From Phoronis australis (lineage: Eukaryota > Animalia > Phoronida), in assembly GCA_002633005.1 (NCBI GenBank), contig NMRA01000421.1, positions 337,573 through 401,572 of the forward strand: DNA of 64,000 nucleotides. The letters run 5' to 3'. The notes under the pieces were generated by a model. It did not search any database. It saw only the letters and a program-made list of their open reading frames with translations, and was not told the origin of the DNA. Within the stretch, counting starts at the first letter, position 1. Each line of letters starts with the position of its first letter. Shown in pieces: positions 54,191 through 63,903 of this stretch. Both the position numbers and the translations under genes were made by a program.

Positions 54191-54349
54191 CCACCTATAG
54201 ACAGTGACCATCGTCTAGCTGGCTCAGTAGGGATGGTGTTGCTCCTAGGCCATAGTAGACATAGGCAATGACCATCGCCTCTGTTGGCCCTAGACAGTGA
54301 CCACCATCTCTAGCTGGCTCAGTATGAGACGGTTTTGTGCCTTATGGTA

Positions 54350-54980
54350 GGTAAAAGCCATCACGGATATGCCGTACCCAGAAACTATAAAGCAGGTACA
54401 AACTCTCCTTGGAATGGTCACATATGTTTGTAAATATCTGAAAAACCTGTCTTCAGTCATCGAGCCATTGAGGAGTCTGATTAAAGAGTCAAATGAACCG
54501 CAGTTTCAGTTTCACTTTGATGAAGTGCACAAAACCGCATGTGACAAATTGCGTAAGATGCTGATAACAGCACCTGTGTTAAAATTCTACGAGTATGATA
54601 AACCAGTTACTATTTCCTGTGATGCTAGCCAGTCAGGGTTAGGCTATGTCTTGATGCAAGAGGGCTCTCCAGTCGCATATGGATCTAAAGCGTTGACTGA
54701 TGCAGAATATGCATATGCCCAGATAGAAAAGGAGCTATTGGCGATAGTGTGCGCGGTCAGAAAATTTCACACTTACATATATGGCAAGTTGGACGTAACC
54801 ATTGAAACTGATCATGCTGCCTTGCAACAAATTCTACAGAAACCATTATACCAAGTCTCGTTGCGGATGCAAAAAATGCGAATGCGATTACAAGGGTATG
54901 ACTTTAAACTTCAGGTCAAGAGGGGAACAGAAATTCCCGTGGCAGATGCCTTGAGTCGAGCTTACTTACTTGACACTGAT
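54350..54980 (+). pseudogene. Ty3/Gypsy pol fragment (RT connection and RNase H)
   Basis: LLGMVTY...PLRSL...APVLKFY...ISCDASQSGLG...PVAYGSKALT..E..YAQIEKELLAIV...FHTYIYG...ETDH...ADALSR; no RT core, integrase or paired LTRs. Confidence 0.9.
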
Positions 54981-55216
54981 CGCTCCACCGATTCCCGTTA
55001 CACTTATAACAACTTTTTAATCAGTAGGAGGCATACTTTGCAGAAAAGCTTCCGGGGTATGAACCGCCTATAGGAGTTACATCGTCTCTACTGAGCCAGC
55101 TAAAGATGGTGGTCACTGTCCACCTACTGAGTTATAACTTTTACTTGGTAATAATTAATAAAAAGGGTTATAACCTCTACTGACGCTACACCACTCTCAC
55201 TCTTAAGCTGTGCTAC

Positions 55217-56023: not shown

Positions 56024-56565
56024 ACCAGGTGGGGCAGCTATTGGATGTTGGATGTCAACTAACTAGCTACCGGACTCTCCCTCTGGATAGCTTTAATGTT
56101 TGACCACCAGGTGGGGCAGCTATTGGATGTTGGATGTCAACCAACTACTCAGCCTCTCGTTCAGTAACGCTAGGACCTCGCTAAAAAGCAAGACTTCGCG
56201 AGATTACGTGTGATGTTGCCGTGCGTTTTAAATGAGAGCACGTGTCTTTGACTAGGTTTTAGCTAGGTCCTAGCGTAGGTCCTAGCGTCTACTGAACGCA
56301 CGCGAGCTATCTGTCTCTTTGGATAGCTTTAATAGTTGTCTACCAGGTGGGGCAGCTATTGGATGTTGGATGTCAACCAACTAACCAGCTGTCTGTCTCT
56401 TTGGATAGCTTTAATAGTTGTCCACCAGGTGGTGCAGCTAATGGATGTTAGATGTCAACCAACTAACCAGCTATCCCTTTGGATACCTTTAATGTTTGAC
56501 CACCAGGCGGGGCAGCCAACTAACCAACTATTTCTAGGAATAATTTTACAATTTGACCACAAGGT
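56024..56565. repeat. ~81-bp minisatellite interrupted by a MITE
   Basis: Unit ccaggtggggcagctattggatgttggatgtcaaccaacta...ggatagctttaat...; MITE at 56152-56303. Confidence 0.85.
56152..56303. mobile_element. MITE, inverted copy of the 21735 family
   Basis: Reverse complement of 21735-21884. Confidence 0.8.
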
Positions 56566-56599
56566 GTCGACAGTAGTAATGTGTACACCTAACTAGTTG

Positions 56600-57218
56600 G
56601 TTGGAGCCTCCATGTCTCAGTAATGATGTGTTTATCAATGGAGCCTCCGTGTCTCAGTAATGGTGTGTTTATCAATGGATCCTCCATGTCTCATTAAGAG
56701 TGTGCTTATCCATGGAGCCTCCATGTCTCAGTAATTATGTGTTTATCAATGGATAATCCATGTCTCAGTAATGTTGTGCTTATCCATGGAGCCTCCATGT
56801 CTCAGTAATGATGTTCTTATCAATGGATCCTCCATATCTCAGTAATGGTGTGTTTCATAGCGTAGAATTGCCGTGAGGACTTGACTGGGACCTCAGGGGT
56901 CTCACACTCCACTGATTTATCCACATTATTTTGAAAACGCTTTGCCCAGTCACACATTAGGTGTCATAAAACAGATAAGAATACCTGCAGCTGACGCAGC
57001 AAGTAGAACTATACTCTCGTTATCACATTGGTGTAGACTCACAGTTGAACTGTGGTTTTCTGTTGACCCCAGATCGTCTGGAGTTGCACCATATACCAAC
57101 TCTGGACGGTTTCTCACTACGATTTAGCATTATGTATCCATGGAGTCTCCATGTCTCAGTAATGATGTGTTTATCATATCAAAGGAGTCTCCATGTTTCA
57201 GTAATGGTGTGCTTATCA
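56600..57218. repeat. 37-bp minisatellite (about 7 + 2 units, with a ~280-bp interruption)
   Basis: Unit atggagcctccatgtctcagtaatgatgtgtttatca at 56600-56857 and again at 57139-57218. Confidence 0.9.
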
Positions 57219-58405
57219 AACGAGAACATTAATCATTTGCAAAGAAGATTATGCAGAACTGAGAATTATAAAGCTGTGTGAATATTCTCATCAGGTTGAA
57301 TCCTATAAGGCCTTTTTATACTAACATCGATGCGTCCATGTTTTGGGGAGTTGCGGTCAGTATGAATGGTTAACTTTGGTCCAAGGTGGAAGTTAACAGC
57401 GCCAGTTAACTTAGCTGTAAATAAGTGGATTTAACAGTGGAGCGTCGATGCTTTGGTGCAGTATGAATGGTCAACTTCGGTCGCCAGGTGCCACTGTTAT
57501 CATCATCAATTTTATTCCTCCCAGAATTCCCCCGAGTACTACCATGAGATACGGACATGCGCAAAGCGGACCATTCCACGGACTTATCTTCTAGAGGAAG
57601 ACGTGTTTTTCCTTTGGAAGGTTTTTTCGCGCAAGTTACACCGCGACCACGCTCAATTGCATAACTCTTTGCTAATGAGCATTTTCTTCTTATCAACTAT
57701 ATCATCATCTTGGAAGTTTTGGCCGACCGAGCTCACCGACTCTGTGTGACTCGACGGGCCACACAATGCCCGGTTTTACCGGCGCTGAGCATTACGACTC
57801 TCTATTGGCCTTATCGTATTTTCAGGCCTACCTGCTTTGGGGCTTCCGTGACTCGACACGGACCATGTGGAGTGGTTGATAGTTGTTCTATCCTCGTACG
57901 CTTAACTCTTTGCGTATTTAACACTCACATTTGGGCTTTTGGCACAGCGCACATGAGGCTCGCATGACTCATCAGTCAAGTATTTCTTTGTGTGCCTCAC
58001 TGTACTGACACGTTACGTCATACCCACGCACAGCTGTACATTGTTTACCACTTTGTACACGCCTTTGACCTTTGCACCGAATGTGCCCTCTTTGTGCTCG
58101 GCACTGTCGACGCCAGCGATCCTGACACTCTTTTGTTCGTCGGTTGCCATCGCTTCCCGGTTACACCCGGGTTTTTCGAGTTGCACTCGCTGCCCGCTCT
58201 AATCCCTGGGAACGCATCTTAGTCATTCACACATTATGCAGCGCGGGTTTTTACAGCCAATCCCGGCGCACTTGTGAGGTCACGTGCGGAGGTGGTTCGT
58301 TCCCACCAATCAGTTTCCACCCTCGGGTATTTAGGCATTTGCTGTTGCAGGCTCGGACATATCGCAGTTTTCGCCTGTTCGTAGCGCATCAGACAGCACT
58401 TCATC

Positions 58406-61400
58406 ATGCCGAAGGACTCCGCCGATAGGAAATCTGGATCAACTTCGATCGAGAAGCCCCCGAAGAAGACATCTTCAAGTTCAGTTACACTGCCGTCCAT
58501 CGATTCCCTGACGCGGGCTTCGTCGCCTGACCGTCAGCCGCCGCCGAGTGAACCGTCCACCACCGCCGCTTCAGCCACCGCCGCCCAGACTCCGGAACCC
58601 ACTACGGACCGGAGTTTATTCAATCCCCCGACGCTGATGCCGTCTTGGCCGCCCTTCTACGCGCCACCACCCCCACACATGGGCGGTTACCATTACTGGC
58701 CGCAACCTGTTCCCATGGAGGACTATGCGCACTTCGCTCCCTCCTCCGATTCTGAAGACGAGACAGCTTCCACCTCGCCACTTTCTGGAGCGCCTCTCCC
58801 CCACAGTGCTGAGCCGCCATTTGTCGGGTTGCTGGCGTCTCATTTGGCGGATCAGTCCGAGGAGCAAGCGCCGCCAGTATCGGACGCTGTTGCGTCCCTC
58901 GTCAACTCCCTATGGGAGCGGGGTAAGGCTTTCGATATAAAGCAGGCACACGATAACCACCCCCGGCCCGATAACATTACAGTCCACAAGACGGACTTGA
59001 ATGAAGAAATTGCTGACGTGGTGCAAAACCACAAAACTGTGAAATTTAAAGAGGGCCAGTTGAAATCTGCGCAGTCGGCAATAGCCAGGGCGGCCATTCC
59101 CCTGACTAAATTGGTGGACACCCTGATCACCACAGCTCCCAAACATCTAAACGCCAAGGACTTGGTGGACAACACTGTAGACGCGCTAGGTCTCCTGGGC
59201 TATGCTAGCGCGAAGATCAACTCCACTAGACGAGACATTATAAAGCCCCATCTCAACTCAAAGTACCATTCGGCACTCAACAAGGCCAGTGCCTCAGACA
59301 AGCTCCTGTTTGGAGACCAGTTGGGAGAGAAGTGCAAACAGGCCTCTCAGGCCCTTAATCTCGCCCGGACTCCCATGACTGCGAGACACTCTACACGCCG
59401 GCCGTCGCCCTACCCTGCCTCCTACAGACGGGCCTATCAGCGCCAGCCGCAACACGGCTATCGCCCTTTTTTAGGTGAGCATTCATTTGTACTGTCGAAT
59501 GCACCAAATTTTATGCGGGCGGCAGCTCGTAGTGGACATGTTTGTCAATCTGCTACTAATACTCTTGCATTGTCTCTTGACAGGCCAACAGTACACTCAA
59601 AAACGGCACCCACCACGGAAGCCAGCCACAGCCACCAGACAGACTGCCAACCGAAAATAGACTTATCTTCCGTAAGTAAAATATCCTTGGTCCTCTCTGA
59701 CCTTGAGACCTCCTTGGCCAGAGGGGTTAGTTACTGTGTCCCTAAGTGGCGTCAAATTACTAAGGATCCTCGCATACTGGCCATTGTCACCGGCTATGAA
59801 ATTGAATTTGACCTGCTTCCTACTCAAACACAACCAGGTACCAATGCAAAATTTTCGCCACTTGAACAACAGTTCCTGCGTAGGGAAATTCAATCCATGC
59901 TGGCTAAACAAGTCATTGAACGCTGTCCTCACTCTCCTGGACAATTTGTGTCTCCCGTTTTTCTTCGACCTAAGAAAGTTGCAAATGAGTTTCGGTTTAT
60001 CCTTAATTTGAAGACCTTAAACTCTTATGTTGCTTATCATCATTTCAAAATGGATACCTTTGAATCGGCACTTCGCTTAGTGACGCGGGATTGTTACTTT
60101 ATCAGTTTAGATTTGTCTGACGCTTATTATAGCATCCCAATAGCCAGGCATCATCGAAAGTACTTGCGATTCAGGCATGATGATGCGCTTTACCAATTTA
60201 CGGCTTTGCCAAATGGTTTAAGTTCAGGACCGCGTATCTTCACTAAGTTGCTTAAGGTGCCCCTGGCGGAACTTCGCCGCGTTCATGATGTCACTATAAC
60301 GGCCTACATAGATGACACCTTAATTGTGAATTCTGACCCTGACAAGTGTGAAAATGATGGGGTACTGACAGCCACATTACTACAAGATCTTGGTTTCACA
60401 GTCAGCAAAACTAAGAGCGTTTTGACACCTTCTCAGGAAATAGACTTTTTAGGGTTCCATATTGACTCGAGAACAATGACCGTCACTTTACCGCCCTCCA
60501 AAGCAGAGAAGCTTATATCTCTGCTTAATGATTTTTTATGTATGGATTGTATCTCTATACGGGATGTTGCAAAGTTAGTGGGTACATTACTGGCAACTCA
60601 CCCTGGCAATCGCTATGCGCAACTGTTTACAAAGCAGCTGGAAATCGACAAGAATGTTGCTCTGCAGCAATCCGGTCGTAACTTCGAGAGTGTCATGTCC
60701 CTTAGTCAACTTGCTTATCAAGATCTATCTTGGTGGACCACTAATGTTGCTCACTGCTTTGCTCCAGTGTACCTCGGTGACCCTGACTGTGTGTTCTACA
60801 CCGATGCTAGTTTACAGGGATGGGGTTGCAATATTCCTTCTCGGAATAAAACGTTTGGTGGGCGTTGGGATTACACTGAAGTTACTTGGCATATTAATGA
60901 GCTTGAACTCACTGCAGTTTATTATTCCTTACAATCTGTATTTGCAAACATGAGAAATATTCATTTACGGGTCATGACTGACAACACAACAACAATGCAG
61001 TGTATACGTCATCAGGGCTCTGTACACTCATATCGCTGTAACAAGGTTACCCGAAAAATCTGGCTCTGGTTAGTCGAGAGAAACATTTGGTTGTCAGCTG
61101 GCTTTTGCCCTGGTAAACAAAATGTCGCTGCAGACACAGCATCCAGGGTTTTCAAAGATGAAACCGAGTGGACATTACTTCCACATGTTTTTCGAAAAAT
61201 TTGCACAAAATTTGGGAACCCGTCCATTGATTTGTTCGCATCAAGACTTAATTATAAGGTGAAACCCTTTTGCTCTTGGCAACCAGACCCAGAAGCTGCA
61301 TTGGTGGATAGCTTTATGTGTCATTGGGGGAATTACAAATTGATTTATGCTTTTCCACCCTTCGCGATTTTGAATGCAGTCATTCAAAAATGGATTATGG

Positions 61401-61738
61401 ACGAGGCTGATGGTATTATCATTGTGCCCTTCTGGCCAACAAAGCCCTGGTTTACTATGATGACTCCCATGATCATAGGGACACCGTTTATCATTCCAGC
61501 TACTAATCATACTTTGGTTTTGCCTTCTAGACCTCAGGCCCGGCCCATGGACAAACTCTACCTGATGGTGACGCACTTGTCAGGCAGGCTCTACAGACAA
61601 AAGGATACAGCCCATCTGTCATCACCACCATCATGGCGTCCCGACGAAAGTCCTCTTCAGACCTCTACAGCTGCTACATCAAACAGTGGATTCTCTATTG
61701 TAGTCAGAGGGACATTGCTCCAGTGTTTGCACCTGTAG
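58406..61738 (+). CDS. DIRS Gag + RT + RNase H + Dam-like methyltransferase, one continuous frame on unspliced RNA (1110 aa)
   Basis: Gag-like region (RRDIIKPHL, LLFGD, PFLG); RT (FRFILNLK, LDLSDAYY, LPNGLSSGPRIFTK, YIDD); RNase H (TDAS, HINELE, TDN, NVAADTASR); MT (IDLFAS...YAFPPF). Confidence 0.92.
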   Translation: MPKDSADRKSGSTSIEKPPKKTSSSSVTLPSIDSLTRASSPDRQPPPSEPSTTAASATAAQTPEPTTDRSLFNPPTLMPSWPPFYAPPPPHMGGYHYWPQPVPMEDYAHFAPSSDSEDETASTSPLSGAPLPHSAEPPFVGLLASHLADQSEEQAPPVSDAVASLVNSLWERGKAFDIKQAHDNHPRPDNITVHKTDLNEEIADVVQNHKTVKFKEGQLKSAQSAIARAAIPLTKLVDTLITTAPKHLNAKDLVDNTVDALGLLGYASAKINSTRRDIIKPHLNSKYHSALNKASASDKLLFGDQLGEKCKQASQALNLARTPMTARHSTRRPSPYPASYRRAYQRQPQHGYRPFLGEHSFVLSNAPNFMRAAARSGHVCQSATNTLALSLDRPTVHSKTAPTTEASHSHQTDCQPKIDLSSVSKISLVLSDLETSLARGVSYCVPKWRQITKDPRILAIVTGYEIEFDLLPTQTQPGTNAKFSPLEQQFLRREIQSMLAKQVIERCPHSPGQFVSPVFLRPKKVANEFRFILNLKTLNSYVAYHHFKMDTFESALRLVTRDCYFISLDLSDAYYSIPIARHHRKYLRFRHDDALYQFTALPNGLSSGPRIFTKLLKVPLAELRRVHDVTITAYIDDTLIVNSDPDKCENDGVLTATLLQDLGFTVSKTKSVLTPSQEIDFLGFHIDSRTMTVTLPPSKAEKLISLLNDFLCMDCISIRDVAKLVGTLLATHPGNRYAQLFTKQLEIDKNVALQQSGRNFESVMSLSQLAYQDLSWWTTNVAHCFAPVYLGDPDCVFYTDASLQGWGCNIPSRNKTFGGRWDYTEVTWHINELELTAVYYSLQSVFANMRNIHLRVMTDNTTTMQCIRHQGSVHSYRCNKVTRKIWLWLVERNIWLSAGFCPGKQNVAADTASRVFKDETEWTLLPHVFRKICTKFGNPSIDLFASRLNYKVKPFCSWQPDPEAALVDSFMCHWGNYKLIYAFPPFAILNAVIQKWIMDEADGIIIVPFWPTKPWFTMMTPMIIGTPFIIPATNHTLVLPSRPQARPMDKLYLMVTHLSGRLYRQKDTAHLSSPPSWRPDESPLQTSTAATSNSGFSIVVRGTLLQCLHL
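59475..59583 (+). other. Candidate spliceosomal intron 1 of DIRS (109 nt) at the gag/pol junction
   Basis: TAG|GTGAGC donor, GCTACTAAT branch (59552-59560), pyrimidine-rich tract, GACAG| acceptor; removal gives a 381-aa Gag ending ...PFLGQQYTQKRHPPRKPATATRQTANRK*. Confidence 0.65.
59672..61530 (+). other. Candidate spliceosomal intron 2 of DIRS (1859 nt) removing pol
   Basis: TCC|GTAAGT donor (phase 0 in pol frame), GCTACTAAT branch (61499-61507), tttggttttgccttctag| acceptor; the YR frame opens at the first base after the acceptor. Confidence 0.65.
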
Positions 61739-62544
61739 GAGAGGGACTTTCTTTTCTCCAAACACTTGTCAACCATAATAAGGGCTACAGTGTCCTTAAT
61801 ACTGCCCGCTCTGCACTTTCTTCTGTTATGATTTTACCAGGCAATGAGACCTTTGGTTCTAATCCAGATGTAGTTCGTTTTATGAAGGGTGTTGCAAATA
61901 TGAACCCCCCTAGACCTCGTTATGTTGATACCTGGGACGTGAATGTAGTGTTAGATTTCCTAAAATCATGGGGTCCGGCTAAGTTGTTACCAATAGCGAA
62001 ATTAACTATGAAGACTGTTATGCTTATACTAATTCTCACCGGACAACGTCCGCAGATCATCTCTGCCCTTAACGTAGATTCCATGAACATTTCAGCCTCT
62101 AAATTTACCTTTACCATTGCAAGCAAGGATCTTAAACAAGGCCGTCTTAATTATAAACCTGAACTGTTACACCTGAAAGCTTTTCCGTCAGATAAGCGGT
62201 TGTGCATTTATCATTATTTGACTGTATACTTAAAACGTACTCTAGACTATCGGGGGTCATGTAAAGCACTATTTCTTACTGTTACTAGACCGTATAAAGC
62301 AGCCACAGGTGATACTGTACGGCGATGGATCCGAAACGTCTTATCGGAGGCTGGTATAAATGTCAATGTATATAAACCCGGTAGTGTTAGATCAGCTTCT
62401 GTTAGCAAAGCTAGTGTGTCTGGAGCCACTGTTGAGGAGATTATGAAGGCAGGTGGTTGGTCACGGCCTTCGACATTTAGCAAATATTACAAGAAACCTA
62501 TCAACAGAGAATCTAAAACCTTGGCAGAATTTGTATTGCATTAA
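61531..62544 (+). CDS. DIRS tyrosine recombinase (frame open from 61531; first ATG at 61633)
   Basis: N-terminal Y..LNTARSALS region; catalytic-type motifs TGQR, GSVR (H-x-x-R variant), GGW, KYY; overlaps the 3' end of pol in another frame. Confidence 0.93.
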   Translation, partial: TSGPAHGQTLPDGDALVRQALQTKGYSPSVITTIMASRRKSSSDLYSCYIKQWILYCSQRDIAPVFAPVGEGLSFLQTLVNHNKGYSVLNTARSALSSVMILPGNETFGSNPDVVRFMKGVANMNPPRPRYVDTWDVNVVLDFLKSWGPAKLLPIAKLTMKTVMLILILTGQRPQIISALNVDSMNISASKFTFTIASKDLKQGRLNYKPELLHLKAFPSDKRLCIYHYLTVYLKRTLDYRGSCKALFLTVTRPYKAATGDTVRRWIRNVLSEAGINVNVYKPGSVRSASVSKASVSGATVEEIMKAGGWSRPSTFSKYYKKPINRESKTLAEFVLH

Positions 62545-62625
62545 TTGTATATGTTGACCTACCAATACAAATTACTCGAACATTTGGTGTTGTTTGCTGT
62601 CCACTTTCTGTGATCAACTTTCAAG

Positions 62626-62748
62626 TCTCATGGTAGTACTCGGGGGAATTCTGGGAGGAATAAAATTATACAGTTAGACGAACTTACCTTAAGTGAAGGA
62701 TGACTGTAATTTTATGTATCCCCAGAATTCCCCCAGAGTGCTAACATG
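62626..62748. repeat. DIRS internal complementary region (ICR)
   Basis: 62626-62667 is the exact reverse complement of 57508-57549; 62664-62748 is the exact reverse complement of 62831-62915. Confidence 0.95.
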
Positions 62749-63763
62749 CCCTCCACATCCCACCCTGTTAGCACTCTCTTGATCACAGAAGAGCTTTAAA
62801 GAATGGTCCGCTTTGCGCATGTCCGTATCTCATGTTAGCACTCTGGGGGAATTCTGGGGATACATAAAATTACAGTCATCCTTCACTTAAGGTAAGTTCG
62901 TCTAACTGTATAATTAAAGGGCAGTGTCGTCGCTAATAGTTGCTTATTTTTTGCTTGAATAATCACCAATTATCGAATTAAAAATAAGTTTTATGTCAAT
63001 TAGCACATGTAAATGTTCCCAAATCACATTAAGAAAATCTTAGCGTGCAGCGCCACCTTGTGATTAATTCGATGACAACAACGTCACCATTTATTTCGAT
63101 GTTCGTTAACTACCGAAGCTGGTATGAATGGTTTAGTTAACTTCATAGATTACGTCGATGCTTCACTCAGACCAGGGTTAAGTCAGTATGAAAGGGCCCA
63201 TAGACATTCTGGTTCTTGGTAAGTTGTTTTTGTATTACAGTGATGTGTAATTATTGTTACTACAGATGCTCACAAGAGGGAAATTACAAAATCTGGGTTT
63301 GTATTCCCTGAATTTATCATACATAATCCAGCATGAACGAAACGGCCCTATGCCTCATTTGGCTCAGACTATCACCCATGTATGCATTGCACCATAAATT
63401 AAGTAGCTCTCTGTTGAAATTGCAGTCATCACGTGTCATTTCAAGCGACGGGCATGGTCCCAAGAGCACAACGGAACTTTCAGTTCTTCCATAGTCCGGA
63501 TATCCTTACTTATCTTTGTAAGGAAAAACTATACAACGGTAAGAGGTCTAACTCCATTTTGACGGCCAATGGGTTTATTACCGCCTTAACCTATATTTGT
63601 CCATGTTCGCATAAACGGAAATAATTAGGTATTAAAATTAAGGAAACAATGTAAACATCCACAAGTGATTCTCATGTCGCCGCATGCACGTAATCCGGAT
63701 ATGACGTAATGCGCGAGTGTAGACCTGCGCCGCACGCTTTCACGTTTTTGCATTTAGTATTTC

Positions 63764-63903
63764 CACAGGCGCTTGGGTTTATCTGTTCCTCGATCGCAAA
63801 TGACGTCACTCAATAATACATATAAGAAAACATATGTGTTCTTATATGTATTATTGAGTGACGTCACTTGCGATCGAGGAACAGATAAACCCAAGCGCCT
63901 GTG
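63764..63903. repeat. Near-perfect palindrome (65-bp arms, 10-nt loop)
   Basis: cacaggcgcttggg...tataagaa / ttcttata...cccaagcgcctgtg with one mismatch; each arm contains TGACGTCA. Confidence 0.92.

Follow-up and report, generated by a model that had tools for sequence, protein, structure and literature searches.

In a DIRS1-like retrotransposon of the phoronid Phoronis australis, a programmed -1 ribosomal slip at the end of gag would work together with two spliced introns, a model that carries a probability of about 0.62. The element lies in a window of 64,000 nucleotides, the whole stretch of DNA that was analysed. Its putative slip site, a T TTT TTA heptamer directly before the first intron, is very probably a -1 frameshift site by descent, to judge from the element's relatives, and it is quite likely still working in the window's clade. 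The RNA evidence for the splices and the clade that carries the first intron are new here; the proposed mechanism is a variant of known ones.

The element, its reading frames and its introns

The retrotransposon is intact, of the tyrosine-recombinase type and DIRS1-like (Table 1). Coding regions for gag, pol (RT-RH-MT) and the tyrosine recombinase (YR) are all present, as are inverted terminal repeats, together with an internal complementary region that has a short circular junction. ATT ends are typical of DIRS1-like elements (PMC3266345). Pfam recognizes RVT_1 in the 1110-aa Gag-Pol (E 5.5e-22), together with RT_RNaseH (E 1.4e-4) and Dam (E 1.8e-4), both below the curated cut-offs. It matched no family to Gag, and no DDE integrase or protease to the 1110-aa or 337-aa products. 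The first Met of the YR ORF is residue 35. The leader of about 900 nt (57500-58405) before the gag ATG holds nine upstream ATGs, which raises the question of gag initiation. Elsewhere in the window, a fragment at 54293-55120 contains an LTR-retrotransposon-type RNase H domain (54351-55073) with a 32-nt inverted repeat on its flanks. A repeat comparison of the window finds short tandem arrays of ~80-nt and 37-nt units upstream of the element (56024-57218) and a 140-nt near-perfect palindrome downstream of it (63764-63903).

Table 1. Features of the DIRS1-like element, in window coordinates.
Feature	Position	Strand	Remarks
DIRS1-like retrotransposon	57509..62915	+	~5.4 kb, ATT at both ends; inverted repeats and termini read
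Left terminal repeat	57508..57576	.	pairs with 62626-62667 (100%) and 62801-62848 (94%)
gag, exon-1 coding part	58406..59474	+	356 codons to heptamer; Gag core matched in relatives
Gag-Pol, one 1110-aa ORF on unspliced RNA	58406..61738	+	RT, RNase H-like, methyltransferase-like
T TTT TTA heptamer (Phe-Leu), putative slip site for a -1 frameshift	59467..59473	+	
Weak predicted hairpin over intron-1 donor	59474..59505	+	not significant, not conserved
Intron 1	59475..59583	+	109 nt, GT..AG, 3n+1, stop-free in gag-pol frame, branch-point-like TACTAAT
Exon 2	59584..59671	+	88 nt, encodes the Gag tail in one frame and the pol/YR linker in another
Gag stop TAG on spliced RNA	59658..59660	+	11 nt before intron-2 donor
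Intron 2	59672..61530	+	1859 nt, takes out most of pol
Tyrosine recombinase (YR) ORF, 337 codons	61531..62544	+	starts exactly at intron-2 acceptor; Phage_integrase E 1.6e-6
Internal complementary region	62626..62748	.	left and right halves overlap at 62664-62667
Right terminal repeat and extension	62801..62915	.	inverted-repeat pairs

At 59464-59478 the window reads CCT TTT TTA GGT GAG, which places TTTTTTA at 59467-59473. Read from the gag ATG at 58406, the heptamer falls into X XXY YYZ phase, as a sequence-only reading of this DNA had proposed. Translation of spliced and unspliced forms bears out all the protein lengths given there. On unspliced RNA, the zero frame indeed reads through intron 1 (109 nt, 3n+1) into pol and yields 1110 aa, and a -1 shift yields 357 aa, ending at AGG TGA. 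RNA without intron 1 encodes 381 aa in the zero frame and 1074 aa after a -1 shift; with both introns removed, the products are the 381-aa Gag and, after the shift, 723 aa. A further form, absent from the earlier reading, keeps intron 1, loses intron 2 and encodes 759 aa in the zero frame. The -1 frame downstream of the heptamer is long and open on spliced RNA only (1074 or 723 aa). The immediate stop after a -1 shift on unspliced RNA, which had been presented as an outcome that flips with splicing, is real, but it needs no selection because any G/GTRA donor reads AGG TRA in the -1 frame; it was dropped as independent evidence. The element contains 14 canonical heptamers, six of them in gag/pol phase, and a second in-phase TTTTTTA lies at 60532. 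In this one element, the heptamer by itself is not beyond chance. Its significance comes from the pattern in relatives and not from this one copy.

Four runs from the same species (X1-X4) were aligned to the element at 85% likeness; X2-X4 come from a single study, and that X1 is RNA is a guess. Intron 1, with its 109-nt GT..AG joint, is seen removed in 9, 10 and 41 reads of X2-X4, and the 1859-nt joint of intron 2 (59671 to 61531) in 53, 36 and 66. Reads over both joints all run in the sense direction expected of a stranded library. One 1214-nt contig of X1 is without both introns, and only there do the reads phase the two splices; its first joint sits 2 nt further right, which would fit a copy with one substitution. 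Sense depth inside intron 1, at 59477, is 19, 15 and 6 in X2-X4, and the spliced share is roughly 9/28, 10/25 and 41/47 with copies pooled. With so few sense reads inside it, intron 1 appears to be spliced commonly. Both introns are spliced in RNA, at family level rather than for this single locus, because the reads come from many family copies. Their GT..AG ends, branch-point-like motif and family-level removal in RNA are those of U2-type spliceosomal introns. Intron 2 is in phase 0 both in the pol frame at its donor and in the YR frame at its acceptor. Among the best 40 of 465 variant rows, variants fall at 59477, 59485, 59489 and 59521, and none falls within the heptamer.

The ORFs of the window element are intact, and the family's RNA reads show several diverged copies. 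A diverged, rearranged copy supplies many of these reads. Rearranged expressed copies (reads at 58394-59608 and 61796-62578) have an inversion at about 58797-59607 and a deletion at 58395-58742, and several frameshifting indels in YR occur among the strongly expressed ones. X2 and X3 also contain antisense reads across the element.

Gag-end heptamers in relatives with and without intron 1

The survey of relatives covers 85 related loci, with the metagenome scan represented by the best 80 of 467. Including the window, 86 loci were available, of which 10 were removed because their Gag or RT match was missing or truncated. The other 76 form 62 clusters at 85% RT identity, and the member with the longest -1 overlap was used per cluster where present. 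Relative to gag, pol lies in the -1 frame in 46 clusters, in the zero frame in 15 and in the +1 frame in one; all 46 clusters with pol in -1 are without intron 1. A Gag-only search gave no matches, and a search of viral contigs found no relatives. Five DIRS-like loci (L081-L085) sit inside bacterial metagenome-assembled genomes and are probably contamination from eukaryotic hosts.

The gag ends of these intron-less relatives use slippery codons. An in-phase canonical heptamer lies in the gag/pol overlap of 42 of the 46 clusters, compared with 5/45 and 9/45 in same-length controls, and heptamer counts by phase in the overlaps are 51/12/4 (in phase first). TTTTTTA, AAAAAAC or TTTAAAC, a set picked after the data had been seen, occurs in 39 of 46 clusters, whereas synonymous recoding predicts 4.3 (at most 11 over 2000 draws). 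The sequence-only reading had named Phe-Leu (F-L) in non-slippery codons of homologues as evidence against the slip site, and this is not what the homologues show: F-L is written as full T TTT TTA in 21 of 24 overlap pairs versus 2 of 128 in pol. Full heptamers likewise encode L-N in 6/7 cases in overlaps versus 2/179 in pol, and K-N in 12/26 versus 5/57. The heptamer type switches at least nine times on the tree and therefore fits a slip site, not a fixed peptide or a splice signal. F-L is also present in 48 tails of further Gag proteins versus 7.1 in shuffles (141 usable proteins among the best 150 of 8458 matches). Across the intron-less survey, the window's clade and the tree, the heptamer is conserved beyond amino-acid need.

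Downstream of the heptamer, at a spacer of 5-10 nt, intron-less relatives tend to have a predicted helix. Its median energy is -12.7 kcal/mol, versus -5.8 kcal/mol at a point 25 nt beyond, and comparisons with two controls give p 2e-5 and 0.02. Downstream z is below -1.5 in 18 of 39 of them versus 3 of 39 upstream. Helix energies of the spliced clade members match this group (median -13.3 vs -12.7 kcal/mol), with an equally stable upstream control, and 0/7 have a downstream z below -1.5. In the window, within a model that leaves pseudoknots outside, the downstream fold reaches -6.6 kcal/mol on spliced and -16.0 kcal/mol on unspliced RNA, and exon 2 has a z of 0.08. Rfam gave no match at 59300-59800. 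Phase bias, codon bias, type switches and the trend towards a downstream helix in the relatives are, as read from sequence, the marks of a -1 frameshift signal.

The 15 zero-frame clusters comprise seven with heptamer and intron 1 (the window, L001, L002, L003, L005, L009 and L014), L041, whose predicted 3n+1 intron measures 289 nt and which has no heptamer, five fused elements with tandem donors, and two broken copies. The window's clade unites 18 fused gag-pol rows, 8 elements known as DNA and 10 proteins, with SH-aLRT support of 99-100 in quick trees. Intron 1 of the eight measures 109, 118, 118, 133, 133, 145, 184 and 289 nt, always 3n+1; such a length is partly inherent in having pol in the zero frame, and all of these introns except the window's are sequence-based predictions. 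It is stop-free in the pol frame in 8/8, against a fraction of 0.0002-0.19 of shuffles, and these predicted introns indicate selection on intron 1 to be translated. T TTT TTA precedes intron 1 in seven of the eight, and F-L-G-E/K/M is found in 6/10 further clade proteins. Five of the 18 rows (L041, P0006, P0009, P0010 and P0011) are without F-L-G, so some lineages manage without it. Removal of intron 1 restores the intron-less layout, with a Gag tail of 16-36 codons and then the second donor; once it is removed, GG follows the heptamer in 6/7 clade members, compared with 11/21 intron-less TTTTTTA sites. A tree rooted on the Dictyostelium citrinum protein P0082 places the clade within the intron-less elements. 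The earlier suggestion that the intron replaced an ancestral frameshift fits the expression of pol, and the tree favours this direction, although the reverse root, on the clade stem, is not rejected by the AU test (p-AU 0.27).

Proposed routes to Pol and the recombinase

Splice signals for YR recur across the family. In 29 of 45 intron-less clusters the gag stop is followed within 50 nt by a donor in phase 0, versus 34 of 1073 windows used as controls. When acceptors near the start of YR were scored crudely, intron-less relatives showed no preferred phase (16/11/12). By protein alignment, most of them use an acceptor about 56 codons upstream, at Phe-Pro-Pro-Phe-Ser of pol; two elements in this alignment were without the motif, and the L009 row matched a different one. 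The AG at this motif is in phase 0 for YR in 24 intron-less clusters, and YR is open from there in 24/24; a stop is present in 11 of the 13 clusters without the AG. The Ser of the motif is AGY in 23/28 cases versus 445/1837 elsewhere. In all seven intron-1 elements with YR (7/7), the acceptor sits at the window's RNA-confirmed position, in phase 0. From this pattern of phase-0 donors and acceptors, we infer that one slip could feed Pol or YR, depending on the splice. Two weak searches for an in-frame Gag-YR fusion yielded no such protein, which counts against the slip model: the sole match from 4170 long candidates is an RH/MT-YR gene model without Gag, and the best 150 of 8458 Gag matches include one patchwork model only.

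Donor arrangements vary. Six elements of the window's clade (L001, L002, L003, L005, L009 and L014) have tandem intron-2 donors 4 nt apart, the weaker in the YR frame and the stronger not, an arrangement that may put a further brake on YR. In the window, intron 2 has one strong donor, in the YR frame. L036, L040, L042, L048 and L050 form a separate clade (SH-aLRT 99) with fused gag-pol and no slippery heptamer. Their tandem donors, GTGAG then GTAAG, are in phases 1 and 0 and lie 5 nt apart in four and 8 nt in L048; alternative use of the two could give Gag or an in-frame Gag-YR without a frameshift.

In most relatives, which have no intron 1, one slip would produce Gag-Pol on genomic RNA and Gag-YR on intron-2-spliced RNA. 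The window's clade likely gained a stop-free 3n+1 intron directly behind the heptamer. With intron 1 kept, genomic RNA would read into pol (1110 aa), and slipping ribosomes would stop at once. Doubly spliced RNA would yield mostly the 381-aa Gag and, by slipping, a minor 723-aa Gag-YR. Because full YR on doubly spliced RNA would be reachable only by the -1 slip, this arrangement would explain the retention of the heptamer. Splicing would then determine how much Pol is made relative to Gag, and slipping how much YR. RNA without intron 1 only is probably rare or not copied, since 0/8 DNA-known clade members have lost intron 1, and its 1074-aa slip product is probably minor. The Gag stop is too close to the last junction for junction-dependent decay by the usual 50-nt rule.

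The strongest competitor, itself unlikely, takes the heptamer for a relic whose function splicing has wholly replaced: unspliced RNA would give Gag-Pol, doubly spliced RNA Gag, and RNA with intron 1 kept and intron 2 spliced a 759-aa Gag-YR. The 759-aa frame exists and the pooled reads are compatible with it, the window's spliced RNA has a weak stimulator, and both L041, with its 289-nt 3n+1 intron, and the five elements of sister architecture, with fused gag-pol and tandem donors, do without a heptamer. The stronger intron-2 donor is out of the YR frame in 6/7 heptamer-bearing clade members, which also counts against the slip model. In each of the three read sets, joints of intron 2 are more numerous than those of intron 1, but the rearranged copy can explain this surplus. 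Moreover, T TTT TTA persists unchanged in 7/8 elements, with pol identity to the window's protein no higher than 53%, and it sits in a disordered linker, in which codons would be expected to drift. The donor consensus does not extend to positions -4 to -8. The few sense reads over the intron-1 donor side likewise argue against a relic.

It is improbable that the T-run and AG were preserved not for slipping but as a 3' splice site, a polypyrimidine tract and an AG abutting a donor, that would serve an upstream intron or recursive splicing. The window's CCCTTTTTTAG fits the acceptor pattern, and AG is present in 7/7 heptamer-bearing clade members. However, intron-less relatives use AAAAAAC or TTTAAAC in 18/39 cases, 5/21 TTTTTTA sites are not followed by G, and no joint lands at 59475 among the best 15 of 43 joints.

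Less probable still is a hairpin at 59474-59505 that couples splicing and slipping, as the sequence-only reading envisaged, by hiding the donor and stimulating an abortive slip on unspliced RNA. The hairpin does exist as the minimum-energy fold and pairs the intron-1 donor; three listed variants within it (59477, 59485 and 59489) fall on unpaired positions, and the window's unspliced region folds better than the spliced one. Its stability, however, is no better than that of shuffles (z -1.36, 22/200 as good; second run z -0.94), it is not common to relatives, and the spliced form folds better than the unspliced in five of the other six clade members. Splicing takes place in the nucleus and slipping in the cytoplasm, so a single fold need not connect the two. 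The hairpin was dropped as a coupling device (z -0.9 to -1.5, unshared among clade relatives).

Production of YR alone from Met35, whether through leaky scanning, through reinitiation or off a short RNA of its own, and with no slip or fusion, is the least credible route: a Met stands at residue 34-35 in 4/7 intron-1 elements with YR and read depth peaks over YR, but residues 17-34, before the first Met, are conserved, the Met is present in only 16/52 elements, the conserved donor and acceptor phases matter only for a fusion, and copies with frameshifting indels contribute a large part of the depth over YR.

Known systems and the wider family

The slip model has partial counterparts in known elements. 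The window element shares its gag, RT-RH-MT and YR ORFs, inverted terminal repeats, internal complementary region, ATT ends and length of ~5.4 kb with described DIRS1-like elements (Piednoel et al., 2011, PMC3266345; Malicki et al., 2020, PMC7192593). Those elements have three partly overlapping ORFs, for which the available parts of these papers give no expression mechanism, and introns or splicing are mentioned 0 times in PMC3266345. In contrast, the window element has gag and pol as one ORF on genomic RNA and two spliced introns. No gag-end slip site or native DIRS intron is described in the passages surveyed (PMC7192593, PMC3266345, PMC3783388, PMC6681497, PMC13003380, PMC8547959, PMC4157794, PMC5633606, PMC9210276, PMC2685390, PMC3950715, PMC4373837 and PMC5580714).

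One close counterpart of the slip site is HIV-1 gag-pol (U UUU UUA combined with a stem-loop; PMC4373837), with which it shares heptamer, phase, position at the gag end and a following GGN codon, read AGG in the -1 frame. Unlike HIV-1, the window has no strong stem-loop on spliced RNA, its predicted product is Gag-recombinase and not Gag-Pol, and the predicted slip site adjoins a splice donor. Ty1/Copia elements (Oberlin et al., 2017, PMC5580714) likewise encode gag-pol as a single ORF on full-length RNA and devote a spliced RNA to surplus Gag. In Copia, however, the splice is coupled to premature termination without a slip, whereas the window's spliced RNA continues into YR and keeps the slip site. 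For Ngaro elements, a programmed -1 frameshift has been proposed to express YR (Poulter and Butler, 2015, as quoted in PMC13003380). That proposed shift lies at the RT/RH-YR overlap; the window's would lie at the gag end, with YR added on by a splice.

The literature surveyed does not explain how pol and YR of DIRS elements are expressed from overlapping ORFs, which often have no suitable start codon. The window provides exact signals: a candidate slip site, two introns and predicted products of 381, 723 and 1110 aa, with the splices backed by RNA. The balance tips slightly towards a code general to invertebrate DIRS1-like elements, in which a gag-end slip feeds Pol or, after a pol-removing splice, YR, the integrase being a Gag fusion. 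This code would have been rewired twice. In the window's clade, a 3n+1 intron behind the slip site would leave Pol to intron retention and the slip to YR alone; in the second clade, the slip would have been lost, with tandem splice donors in its place. Three expression solutions would thus be visible in one family, which may offer a natural case of a retroelement that keeps a coding intron and of a gene that moves from frameshift to splicing control. As YR is predicted to be a Gag fusion, the model also bears on how YR may be packaged.
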